Assembly: GCA_964359575.1 (NCBI GenBank)
Contig: CAYHTV010000001.1
Location: forward strand, 5,547-69,546
From: an uncultured Planctomycetales bacterium
GTDB taxonomy: Bacteria; Omnitrophota; Gorgyraeia; Zapsychrales; GWA2-47-8
DNA: 64,000 bases
Direction of reading: 5' to 3'
Shown here: positions 23,245-25,393 of the stretch, one piece after another
How positions within the stretch are numbered: the stretch's first letter is position 1
How the letters are laid out: every line of letters begins with the position of its first letter
Notes under the pieces: model-generated
Seen by the model: only the letters and a program-made list of their open reading frames with translations
What the model was told of the DNA's origin: nothing
Database searches by the model: none
Translations under genes and position numbers: made by a program

Positions 23245-23413
23245 CGTTCGATGAGGCAAAGGTTTGTAACTCATTGATCAATAGTCATTTTTGAACCTCT
23301 TTTTTATTTTCTGGCCTCATTTCCGCGATTAATTCTGTTGAAAAGATATACCGCATATGATATGCTTAAAAATAAATTTTATTCGTAAAAATCGACTGAT
23401 TAGCTATTTATTC

Positions 23414-23487
23414 GGGCCCATAGCTCAGTCGGTCAGAGCAGTTGACTCATAATCAATTGGTCCCTGGTTCGAGTCCAGGTGGGCCCA
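23414..23487 (+). tRNA. tRNA-Met (anticodon CAT; elongator-type, could instead be tRNA-Ile2/lysidine)
   Basis: Cloverleaf with acceptor stem GGGCCCA/TGGGCCC, anticodon loop CTCATAA and TTCGAGT T-loop; G1-C72 pairs, so it is not an initiator; no encoded CCA. Confidence 0.8.
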
Positions 23488-23503
23488 GAGAAAAGTTGTT
23501 TCA

Positions 23504-23580
23504 GGGCGTATAGCTCAGCTGGTTAGAGCGCTGCCCTCACATGGCAGAGGCCGAGGGTTCGAGTCCTTCTATGCCCACCA
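23504..23580 (+). tRNA. tRNA-Val (anticodon CAC)
   Basis: Acceptor stem GGGCGTA/TATGCCC, anticodon stem CTGCC/GGCAG with loop CTCACAT, T-loop TTCGAGT, encoded CCA. Confidence 0.85.
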
Positions 23581-23670
23581 GTCTATTTTCCATGCAAAAA
23601 CGTTAGAAGGATAACAGCGTCTTTTTAAATGCCGCAGATCAAGGCCAATAAATGATAAGGACCATGACAC

Positions 23671-24396
23671 GTGCCACAGGTTTCCATTCGCGATCAAATT
23701 AAGAAGCTCATCGAGCTGCAAAAAATCGATAAAGAAATTTTCGATTACAGAAAGGAATTGGAAGAACGGCCGGCTTTGTTGAGCGAGCTCAAAGAAAAAT
23801 TTGAGAATCAAAAGGCGGCTTTAAAGCAGCTCGAGGAGAAGGTTAAGGCGATCTATTTGGACCGCAAAGCCAAGGAATTGGATCTGAAAACAAAAGAAGA
23901 TGAAATCACGAAAGCCAATTTACAACTTTTCCAAATCAAGACGAACAAAGAATATACTGCCAAGTTAACCGAGATCGAAACGCTTAAGGCCAATAAATCA
24001 ATCTTTGAAGAGAAAATATTGGCTTCGTATGATGAATCCGACGCCATTAATGCTAAAATTGAGAAGGAGAAAGCCTTTCTCGCGGCAGAAGAAAAATTCT
24101 ATTTAGCGCAGAAAAAAGAAATTGAAGATACTGTTAAAATTTTTCAGGATAAGGTCAAAGTTTTACAGAGCCAGCGGAATCAGCAATCTCCGGAGGTTGA
24201 TAAAGAAATTTTGCTGCGGTACGAAAGAATTTTAGAGAAACGAAACGGTATCGCCATTGTTCCGGTGCAGAACGAAGTATGCGGGGGATGTTATATGAAC
24301 GTGACCACCCAATCTGTCAACGAAATCAAGATGCATGAAAAGCTGATGATCTGTGAAATGTGCGCGCGGATTTTATATCTTGAGGATGATCTTTGA
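23671..24396 (+). CDS. Coiled-coil protein with C-terminal C4 zinc ribbon (COG1579-like)
   Basis: Long heptad-rich region, then CGGCY...CEMC zinc-ribbon; overlaps rnhA by 4 nt. Confidence 0.65.
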   Translation: MPQVSIRDQIKKLIELQKIDKEIFDYRKELEERPALLSELKEKFENQKAALKQLEEKVKAIYLDRKAKELDLKTKEDEITKANLQLFQIKTNKEYTAKLTEIETLKANKSIFEEKILASYDESDAINAKIEKEKAFLAAEEKFYLAQKKEIEDTVKIFQDKVKVLQSQRNQQSPEVDKEILLRYERILEKRNGIAIVPVQNEVCGGCYMNVTTQSVNEIKMHEKLMICEMCARILYLEDDL

Positions 24397-24854
24397 TGAA
24401 AGTTTTGGAAATATTTACCGATGGGGCGTGCCGCGGCAATCCGGGGCCGTCAGCCATCGGGGTGGTTATTAAGGAAAACGGCAAGGTTGTTAAAAAGATT
24501 GCACAATCAATAGGGGAAGCCACCAATAATATTGCCGAATACACGGCCTTAGTTTGCGCCCTGAAGGCGGCGGCAGGGCTTAAAGCCCAGCAGTTAAAAA
24601 TTTATACCGATAGTGAACTGCTTTATTATCAGTTGACCGGCACCTATCAGATTAAAAATGAGAATTTGAAATTACTTTTTGCTAAGGCTCAGGAAGCGGG
24701 GAAGAAATTTGAGCATATCCAAATTAAGCGTATTCCCCGTGAGCAAAATCAAGACGCCGATAAGTTGGCGACCCAAGCTATAAAAAAAGAGCAGGCCAAG
24801 GTGGTTGCCTCGGTGTTTTACACCGGGGAGGAAAGTCCGAGCTCCGCAGGATAA
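24393..24854 (+). CDS. rnhA: Ribonuclease HI
   Basis: LEIFTDGACRGNPGPSAIGVV, IAEYTALVCAL and IYTDSELL catalytic motifs of the RNase H fold; the last ~22 codons overlap the rnpB 5' region. Confidence 0.85.
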   Translation: MMKVLEIFTDGACRGNPGPSAIGVVIKENGKVVKKIAQSIGEATNNIAEYTALVCALKAAAGLKAQQLKIYTDSELLYYQLTGTYQIKNENLKLLFAKAQEAGKKFEHIQIKRIPREQNQDADKLATQAIKKEQAKVVASVFYTGEESPSSAG

Positions 24855-25263
24855 TGTATCCCGGTAATGCGGGACGATCCTAGTACTGTGTTTCCGAAAT
24901 TATGTACATAGAGGGACACAGTACTGTACTATGTTCCTCTGAATAAAATTAAAGTAACATAGTACTGGTTTATCGATTGAATAAAATCAATCAGTGGAAA
25001 TCTAGGAACGGATTAGAGCTACAGTGACGATGATCTCGGTGTTTACATCGAGGGAAGTGAAACGAGCAATCTCTACATGGAGCAAGGCCAAATAGGAAGA
25101 GAGCCTTAGCAAAATAATGGGGCACGAATCGATCCGGTTCGTTATTATCTTCGGGTAGGCTGCAAGAGTCAAGAGAGTAATCTCTTAGAGTGAGTGAGAT
25201 AACTACCCCTCATGCCTAAAAACATCATGAGGAACATAACTCGGCTTATTGGTCTGCTCAATT
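24786..25263 (+). ncRNA. rnpB: RNase P RNA (bacterial type A)
   Basis: GGAGGAAAGTCCGAGCTCC (P4 5' strand) at 24826-24844; CCCGGTAATGCGGG; GGAGCAAGGCCAAATAGG at 25079; CGGGTAGGCTGC; ACATAACTCGGCTTATTGG (P4 3' strand) with compensatory change CCGAG/CTCGG relative to E. coli CCGGG/CCCGG; P1 pairing AAGAGCAGGCCAA (24787-24799) with TTGGTCTGCTCAA (25248-25260); about 476 nt including an expansion around 24880-24960. Confidence 0.8.
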
Positions 25264-25266
25264 ATC

Positions 25267-25371
25267 TATGGGCCTTTGTACAACTAAAGAAAAAAATTTG
25301 AATTTATCATTGAGGAGACAAAGGCCAATATTGACTACTTCAATTCTTTTGGTTCTACAAAGGTCAATAAT
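25267..25371 (-). mobile_element. MITE-like repeat family 1, copy 6 (reverse orientation)
   Basis: Lies between the rnpB 3' end and the yebC RBS. Confidence 0.8.
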
Positions 25372-25393
25372 ATAGAAAACAGGAGGAAGTTCG

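Follow-up and report, generated by a model that had tools for sequence, protein, structure and literature searches.

The window analyzed in this study is a stretch of 64,000 nucleotides (nt) from an uncultured Planctomycetales bacterium, which GTDB places in the Omnitrophota (assembly GCA_964359575.1, contig CAYHTV010000001.1, positions 5,547 to 69,546). It carries a gene of the RNase HI family (rnhA), whose reading frame continues into the gene for the RNA of RNase P (rnpB), the ribozyme which trims tRNA precursors. Do the two genes truly overlap and, if so, is the C-terminal tail which RNase HI gains in this way maintained as protein, or is it the translation of a conserved RNA? The overlap is real and clade-wide and, on present evidence, passive. 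It is highly probable that the window contains a class-A-derived RNase P RNA which is truly overlapped by rnhA, and that the tail is carried along as a passive passenger.

Overlap of rnhA and rnpB

The rnhA gene is located at 24396-24854 on the forward strand and codes for 152 amino acids, with a folded domain comprising residues 1 to ~130 and with residues 132-152 encoded by rnpB. Residues 3-129 match the Pfam models RVT_3 (1.2e-23, 83.8 bits, cut-off 21.6) and RNase_H (2.5e-17, 63.8 bits, cut-off 25.8), i.e., the families PF00075 / PF13456, and the protein also matches models of archaeal/actinobacterial-type RNase HI. Four acidic residues, D9, E48, D72, and D122, do not vary among 25 homologues, these positions not being mapped onto a characterised RNase H active site.

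The first in-frame stop codon of rnhA is the TAA at 24852-24854, located at the J5/7-P7 boundary of the RNA. The overlap is therefore 67 nt long (24788-24854, forward strand) and consists of one nt of the codon for K131, 21 sense codons (E132-G152) and the stop codon. An earlier reading of the window from its sequence alone (sequence-only reading) had counted about 22 rnhA codons encoded by rnpB; the overlap itself stands and the count is refined accordingly. The shared segment comprises the 5′ strands of P1 and P2, the P3 hairpin, the 5′ strand of P4 (CR-I) and J5/7. The tail translated from it reads EQAKVVASVFYTGEESPSSAG and its C-terminal tryptic peptide is VVASVFYTGEESPSSAG.

Two alternatives, a true overlap and a misread stop, had been left by the sequence-only reading. 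The former holds, with the read-through being present in 31 independent contigs and in the majority of the best 120 homologues. A search in 5.8 billion proteins identified 1,959 RNase HI homologues, the best 120 of which are nearly all 152-157 amino acids long with a coverage of 98-100%; the sole taxon-named protein among these 120 carries the label Candidatus Omnitrophica. More than 100 homologues share the tail “...GEESPSSxG”, and in 25 aligned homologues, down to an identity of 55%, the consensus of the tail is KKEQAKVVAxxFxxGEESPSSxG with several invariant positions. The motif GEESPSS is GGGGAGGAAAGUCCGAGCUCC translated in frame.

The RNA gene was identified by a covariance model (CM) search, the check which had been proposed with the sequence-only reading. 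RF00010 (bacterial RNase P RNA class A) matches at 24788-25264 on the forward strand with 137.7 bits (gathering threshold 100, E = 3.7e-42), and the match spans model positions 1-367 of 367 and thus the entire model. This gives rnpB a length of 477 nt and lies close to the previously proposed span of 24786-25263. A scan of the 64-kb window with all Rfam models gave three matches above threshold, namely two tRNAs and RF00010, which is the single RNase P match.

The blocks CR-I to CR-V of rnpB are all present and in order, as judged by the CM alignment and the sequence. They are GGAGGAAAGUCCGAGCUCC at 24827, ACAGUGA at 25022 with GUGAAA at 25057, GGAGCAAGGCCAAAUAGG at 25079, CGGGUAGGCUGC at 25152 and ACAUAACUCGGCUUAU at 25234. 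The five type-A blocks named before were each found exactly once in the window, on the forward strand and in the order given: GGAGGAAAGTCCGAGCTCC (24827-24845), CCCGGTAATGCGGG (24860-24873, the P8 hairpin by CM alignment), GGAGCAAGGCCAAATAGG (25079-25096), CGGGTAGGCTGC (25152-25163) and ACATAACTCGGCTTATTGG (25234-25252). The window thus encodes at 24788-25264 the catalytic RNA of RNase P of an Omnitrophota-like bacterium, derived from class A, and this RNA is presumably catalytically active.

The helices which involve the overlap pair as expected. The 5′ strand of P1 (GAGCAGGCCAA, 24789-24799) pairs with 25249-25259 (UUGGUCUGCUC) over 11 bp including one G-U, within 1-2 nt of the P1 suggested earlier (24787-24799 / 25248-25260). 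P3 is a hairpin at 24808-24828 (CCUCGGUG / UUUUA / CACCGGGG), in which 24808-24815 is paired with 24821-24828 over 8 bp according to the CM alignment. The 5′ strand of P4, AAG(U)CCGAG at 24833-24841 with a bulged U24836, forms 8 bp with CUCGGCUU at 25240-25247.

For counting pairs, the two ends of each of 23 related RNase P RNAs (5′ and 3′) were concatenated and then aligned. Standard pairs are formed in 91.4% of the cells of P1, P3, and P4, a conservative percentage, since some distant sequences are slightly misaligned in the 3′ strand of P1; sliding the partner by 1-3 columns reduces the value to 34-50%. Changes on both sides of the pair were observed for 18 of the 27 pairs (129 such cells), including 10 of 11 in P1 and 7 of 8 in P3, and none of 500 shuffles reached the observed covariation values. 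P4 is paired in 100% of its cells. Its pair A24840-U25241 is AU in 15 and GC in 8 of the 23 relatives, and across all retrieved loci it is A-U in 44, G-C in 36, G-U in 5 and A-C in none. The compensatory change CCGAG/CUCGG pointed out by the sequence-only reading is hence a genuine swap from G-C to A-U.

Conservation of the RNase HI tail

The tail looks conserved because the RNA from which it is read is conserved. Among identical residues in 15 codon-aligned genes, the same codon is used at a fraction of 0.84-0.86 in the tail and of 0.41-0.42 in the domain. Along rnhA, this fraction remains level within 0.29-0.58 as far as residue 128 and then rises to 0.62, 0.73, and 1.0. The residues of the tail shift together with compensatory changes in P1 and P3, the window having EQAK at a position where other loci have EPAQ (L119), KQTD (L001), KQGK (L083) or AGQD (L087). 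An alignment of the C-terminus against orthologues had been proposed as a check on the overlap: the tail residues are conserved indeed, but at the nucleotide level, following the base-pairing of the RNA.

The open frame of the tail was considered as a sign of selection and rejected. Frame 0 is open for 22 codons up to the TAA, and the first 75 nt of rnpB contain no stop codon in frames 1 and 2 either. An open frame needs no selection here, because it is a property of the G+C-rich helices.

In addition, the AlphaFold model, based on an alignment of 25 sequences, shows confidence values (predicted local distance difference test, pLDDT) of 93-98 up to about residue 130, of 56 for residues 131-140 and of 39-41 beyond, and according to this model the tail is probably disordered. 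Seven relatives inside the read-through cluster have a secondarily shortened or frameshifted tail (L081, L086, L093, L117, L084, L085, and L160). Taken together, codon identity, residues following the RNA, pLDDT values of 39-56 and truncations within the clade do not support selection on the overlap at the protein level. It looks like the tail of RNase HI is a tolerated by-product of a lost stop codon and not a new function.

True dual coding would mean that the 21-residue tail is selected and functional, e.g., as a linker or as a peptide contacting the RNase P RNA or another partner, so that the region from P1 to P4 carries a joint constraint of RNA and protein. This is unlikely, even though the tail is present in most of the best 120 homologues and in 32 of the 97 loci of the tree set, ends at the same position in all tail-bearing loci of this set but L004, and keeps its frame across insertions and deletions in P3, which add one or four residues in the clade. 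The synonymous sites of the tail are about twice as conserved as those of the domain, as an RNA gene predicts, and the residues vary freely where P1 and P3 covary. At least seven relatives of the clade lost or frameshifted the tail, and in L116 a different frame of this RNA is read. The low AlphaFold confidence and the stop-free frames 1 and 2 likewise argue against a selected peptide.

The passive reading of the tail matters for annotation, as gene callers extend the RNase HI reading frame into rnpB and thereby create a spuriously ‘conserved’ GEESPSS motif in more than 100 database proteins. Biologically, the tail illustrates cleanly how the conservation of a protein segment can be borrowed entirely from an overlapping ribozyme.

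Spread of the arrangement and origin of the transcript

In total, 80 metagenome loci were retrieved with the RNase H domain only (residues 1-130), which makes this sample unbiased for the tail. In 69 of these 80 loci, the CR-I motif lies between -55 and +207 nt from the stop codon of RNase HI on the same strand. Nineteen loci read through CR-I in the frame of the window to the same stop position, and one (L116, with an overlap of 96 nt) reads through in another frame. A further eight stop inside P2/P3, with an overlap of 31-33 nt in the four for which Rfam coordinates are available; in the remaining loci the stop codon is located at or shortly before the first nucleotide of rnpB (+1). The stop of the tail is found at the identical position in 30 retrieved relatives (d = -26), and L004 stops 6 nt later. 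Closest relatives were found by exact-protein look-ups.

A full-length rnpB was confirmed by Rfam in 34 of 40 loci scanned in two batches. Of the six negative loci, two (L081 and L093) are cut off within the RNA by a contig edge, and four (L005, L009, L013, and L029) are without an RNase P match. In a neighbor-joining tree of the domain, which is rough as it is built on 125 residues, the read-through genes form one large cluster; separate cases outside of it are L004, from a Planctomycetales-labelled metagenome-assembled genome, and L116.

The linkage itself reaches beyond this clade. In a sample of GTDB species, rnpB is located at most 250 nt downstream of this RNase HI family in 20 of 80 loci. 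Their labels, about a dozen overall, include Omnitrophota, Planctomycetales, Bacteroidota, Thermodesulfobacteriota, Deltaproteobacteria, and Syntrophales, and further Eisenbacteria, Saccharibacteria, Actinomycetota, Chloroflexi, and Gemmatimonadota. The spacing from the stop codon to rnpB is -71 to +50 nt in each of the 16 loci which matched in the first Rfam batch and which cover about ten taxon labels. In actinobacterial loci with a bifunctional RNase H/acid phosphatase, CR-I is found ~1.5 kb downstream (L047, L072) or is absent from the flank. No description of a linkage between RNase HI and rnpB, of an rnpB overlapping a coding sequence or of RNase P in Omnitrophica was found in the searchable literature.

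The order tRNA, tRNA, Zn-ribbon gene, RNase HI gene and rnpB is conserved in the window (23414-25264) and in the retrieved loci (L001-L171). In the window, the cluster starts with a tRNA-Met(CAU) at 23414-23487 (Rfam and ARAGORN) and a tRNA-Val(CAC) at 23504-23580 (ARAGORN; Rfam match 23504-23577), both on the forward strand; in the relatives scanned, one or two tRNAs are found upstream, two in most. They are followed by a gene at 23671-24396 (forward strand) coding for a Zn-ribbon coiled-coil protein of the CdsZ/CT398 type (Pfam Zn_ribbon_9, 4.8e-10), for which the NCBIfam model CdsZ reaches 85 bits and stays under its cut-off of 275. The TGA stop of this gene shares one base with the ATG of rnhA. 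By tblastn, a Zn-ribbon homologue was found upstream of rnhA on the same strand, mostly abutting, in 39 of 80 genome loci and in 78 of 80 metagenome loci, and the Zn-ribbon/RNase HI pair spans many phyla among the 80 species-level genomes. Downstream of rnpB, yebC and then ruvC follow in close relatives. The gene for the protein subunit, rnpA, was searched in the window by tblastn with E. coli RnpA, which gave no match; this negative is uninformative.

An own promoter of rnpB inside rnhA is not supported: a scan for sigma-70-type sites with an E. coli-type consensus found none in the 150 nt preceding +1, and overall it gave as many sites as expected from shuffles. Upstream of the tRNAs, a promoter-like site is located at 23338-23366 on the forward strand (TTGAAA-17-TATGCT with TG). 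The evidence that it is a possible promoter of the cluster is weak, with a site count equal to the shuffle expectation, and it is given only as a lead. No terminator was found between rnhA and rnpB and no intrinsic terminator after rnpB, the only nearby match, at 25124-25142, being an internal hairpin of the P17 region. The last 50 nt before the +1 of rnpB show no extra synonymous conservation. The 129-nt spacer between rnpB and yebC (25265-25393) contains an inverted repeat, GGCCTTTGT ... ACAAAGGCC, at ~25274-25326 and no canonical terminator.

The adjacency of rnhA and rnpB suggests that they are co-transcribed. Because a nearby sigma-70-like site, a terminator and a synonymous excess are all missing and the Zn-ribbon gene shares a base with rnhA, rnpB would be released from the cluster transcript by processing and not be transcribed from an own promoter. 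In the ancestral state, the stop codon of rnhA would have abutted the +1 of rnpB, as in many relatives. It would then have been lost in the ancestor of the read-through clade, so that the frame ran 21 codons further to the TAA at J5/7-P7. Cleavage of such a transcript would leave an rnhA mRNA without a stop codon in this clade, a cost which is evidently tolerated.

This arrangement could also serve a regulatory coupling, in which translation of rnhA and maturation of the RNase P RNA exclude each other on one transcript: translating ribosomes would open up P1-P4, a cut at +1 would yield the non-stop rnhA mRNA, and the level of RNase HI or of RNase P would be tuned in this way. The tight linkage across about a dozen taxon labels, the lack of a separate promoter or terminator signal and the persistence of the overlap in a large clade fit such a mechanism. 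It is purely inferential, however, and quite improbable, since relatives are linked equally with a stop outside or barely inside rnpB, which makes a long overlap dispensable, and since the repeated loss of the read-through in the clade argues against a required mechanism.

The cross-phylum linkage of RNase HI and rnpB, usually with the Zn-ribbon gene upstream, is the most useful lead and yields a testable hypothesis, namely that RNase P RNA is made from an mRNA 3′ end in many bacteria. A wider proposal would be that Zn-ribbon protein, RNase HI, and rnpB form an ancient functional unit in which the 3′ end of the RNase HI mRNA gives rise to the mature RNase P RNA. Translation into the catalytic core of the ribozyme would then actively couple RNase HI synthesis to the biogenesis of the RNase P RNA in the read-through clade, or the Zn-ribbon or RNase HI proteins would act on or with this RNA. 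As a whole, this proposal appears rather improbable.

Overlaps and shared transcripts of other kinds are known. In Thermus, the gene of the RNase P protein, rnpA, reportedly overlaps its neighbor rpmH extensively, and this overlap is said to be conserved in the clade. It concerns the protein subunit and two reading frames, whereas in the window a protein gene overlaps the gene of the ribozyme. CpxQ, SgrS/SgrT, and RNAIII/hld are examples of stable RNAs derived from mRNA 3′ ends and of dual-function RNAs. The window RNA is similar in being a stable RNA which shares its sequence with the 3′ end of an mRNA and is probably released from there. Those examples are regulatory small RNAs, whereas rnpB codes for an essential ribozyme with a housekeeping role, which shares its catalytic core with the mRNA and the processing of which is putative.

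Several points weigh against this reading of rnpB, its transcript and the passive tail. The read-through is kept in most of a large clade and length changes of P3 are multiples of three, so that weak selection may act on the tail or the frame. The score of 137.7 bits is low for RF00010, owing to a deletion and insertions, and a second rnpB may exist elsewhere in the genome, outside of the 64-kb window. The promoter consensus applied is of the E. coli type and may not fit this phylum. The 5′ end of rnpB, the co-transcription and the translation of the tail are all inferred. Finally, the locus samples were drawn among the matches listed (at least 600 per scan), and the frequencies derived from them are not population estimates.

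Peripheral helices in the window and in relatives

The RNA keeps the helices P1-P3, P5, P7-P12, and P15-P18. The T-loop module of the S-domain (P10/11, J11/12, P12, and J12/13) is aligned with high posterior probability at 25010-25078 on the forward strand and its motifs are present: P10/P11 are followed by J11/12 (ACAGUGA), P12 (~25033-25054), J12/13 (GUGAAA, 25057-25062) and P11′/P10′. The region of CR-II/III and P15-P17 extends over 25079-25163 (forward strand) and contains an extra segment of ~24 nt at ~25106-25129 (P16/17). The GGU motif of class A, which binds the 3′-CCA of tRNA, is located by sequence only at 25154-25156 in the P15/16 loop (CGGGUAGGCUGC, 25152-25163, forward strand). 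P18 is a hairpin with a GUAA (GNRA) loop at 25166-25191 on the same strand, according to the CM alignment.

Directly after GUGAAA (25057-25062), 43 model positions, which correspond to P13/P14, are aligned to 0 nt, and the RNA thus lacks these two helices. They are also missing in eight of eight relatives checked by alignment or S-domain sequence. Compared to the RF00010 consensus, ~10 extra nt precede the P4 3′ strand. The type-A assignment of the sequence-only reading is therefore right in its class, but the RNA is a class-A derivative without P13/P14, a deletion which had been overlooked.

Relative to class A (RF00010; E. coli M1 RNA), the window RNA shares the full-length CM match, CR-I to CR-V, the bulged U of P4, GGU, and the GNRA loop of P18. 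It differs by the lack of P13/P14, by a branched P9 of 134 nt in place of a short GNRA hairpin, by extra sequence in P16/17 (~24 nt) and ahead of the 3′ strand of P4 (~10 nt), and by the coding function of its 5′ 67 nt. Class-A RNAs such as those of E. coli or Thermotoga form the contacts L9-P1 and L14-P8. The window RNA, with its branched P9, cannot form them in the same way.

The loss of P13, P14, P16 or P17 and large extensions of helices are described as ‘not unusual’ in diverged bacterial RNase P RNAs (Lui et al., 2021, PMC8172020). The absence of P13/P14 does not exclude a membership in class A, because published class-A-derived RNAs lack them too (PMC8172020), and both kinds of variation observed here, the loss of P13/P14 and the P9 expansion, have already been described for bacterial RNase P RNAs. 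The RNAs of the Candidate Phyla Radiation (CPR) are similar to that of the window in being class-A-derived, in missing helices, in their large extensions and in their low RF00010 scores (Lui, Nielsen & Arkin, 2021, PMC8172020). They belong to another phylum, and the window RNA, unlike them, keeps P12, P16/17, and GGU; an overlap with a protein gene is not reported for the CPR RNAs in that study (PMC8172020). The rnpB gene itself is ordinary housekeeping and its structural oddities are of known types. Its length, given as ~476 nt and called long for a bacterial RNase P RNA in the sequence-only reading, is not extreme with 477 nt, as the clade ranges from 302 to 678 nt. Scores of the RNase P RNAs scanned in the phylum are mostly ~125-175 bits, with two RNAs reaching 191 and 225; they are low because P13/P14 are gone and the peripheral helices carry private insertions.

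Class B (Bacillus type) also lacks P13/P14. For the window RNA, clan competition in cmscan leaves class A as the best match and the class-B model is not preferred. Neither a better class-B fit nor P5.1, P10.1, and P15.1 were found: the insertion lies between P8 and P10, at P9, and not at P10/P11, and the P16/P17-type architecture is kept. Two other class-A-derived RNAs without P13/P14, L002:2914-3307 and L004:2916-3274, carry ~60-70 nt of inserted sequence at the P10/P11 junction, which in class B is the site of P10.1. This may be a convergence on the class-B solution.

The insertion at P9 comprises 134 nt (24876-25009, forward strand), where the model has 13 positions. An expansion with AGTACTG repeats had been noticed before at ~24880-24960; both expansion and repeats are real, but the expansion is larger. 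AGTACTG occurs three times in the insert (24882, 24920, and 24961) and only two more times in the 64 kb. In the predicted fold, a basal stem (24878-24882 / 25003-25007) closes three hairpins at 24883-24924, 24926-24965, and 24969-24998. Folded alone, 24874-25011 reaches -42.1 kcal/mol with z = -4.65 compared to shuffles. The G+C content is 34% in the insert and 48% in the remaining rnpB.

P9 varies in the clade from ~12 to 134 nt. L161, with an RNase HI 83% identical to that of the window, has an unrelated P9 insert of 67 nt and a very long P12; L162 (72% identical) has ~70 nt of different sequence at P9, and L164 and L165 (66% identical) have short P9 hairpins. The remaining members mostly have a P9 of 5-6 bp with a GNRA loop. 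Judging from these sequences, the 134-nt expansion is private to the lineage of the window, as even the closest relatives are without it. An origin from a mobile element or repeat was considered and rejected, since blastn against the window and the loci L001-L165 found no second copy. An Rfam E-value search of 24860-25025 assigned no family, with only a chance miRNA match at E = 0.79.

It is extremely unlikely that the stop codon is missing through an error of sequencing or assembly, or that this rnpB, which scores low and carries the 134-nt insertion, is a pseudogene: the bit score is just 38 above threshold and the insert is lineage-unique and AT-rich, but the same read-through occurs in 31 independent contigs from different studies, the core blocks are all intact, every helix tested pairs, relatives with other insertions score alike (126-175 bits), and the insertion sits in a peripheral helix which ranges from ~12 to 134 nt in the clade.

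In L162, the P9 insert (1980-2060) and the spacer after its rnpB (2330-2400) contain similar motifs of the GCGGATAGCG / GCTAAACGCTGAA type. They point to a family of short repeats in the genome of L162, which may have seeded the P9 expansion.

Further unusual RNase P RNAs were observed among the relatives. In the Omnitrophota-like RNAs L116:2409-2755 and L131:2397-2747, P12 is apparently missing altogether, J11/12 (ACAGAGACGA) being followed by 3-5 nt and GUGAAAC, with both neighboring junction modules retained. The same RNase HI tail is also present in L133. The loss of P12 is described as ‘highly unusual’ in bacteria (Lui et al., 2021, PMC8172020). The RNA of L091:2381-2682 has a length of 302 nt, as 101 model positions (P11, J11/12, P12, J12/13, and P13/14) are reduced to 4 nt (GGAUUAGAGCU|CUCUGCAU). 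The region is present in the siblings L087 and L092, and L091 may have undergone a single deletion, be an artefact of assembly or represent a minimal variant. The largest RNA in the set is that of L100:2392-3069 with 678 nt; its P12 measures ~250 nt, and a further ~80 nt are inserted ahead of the 3′ strand of P4.

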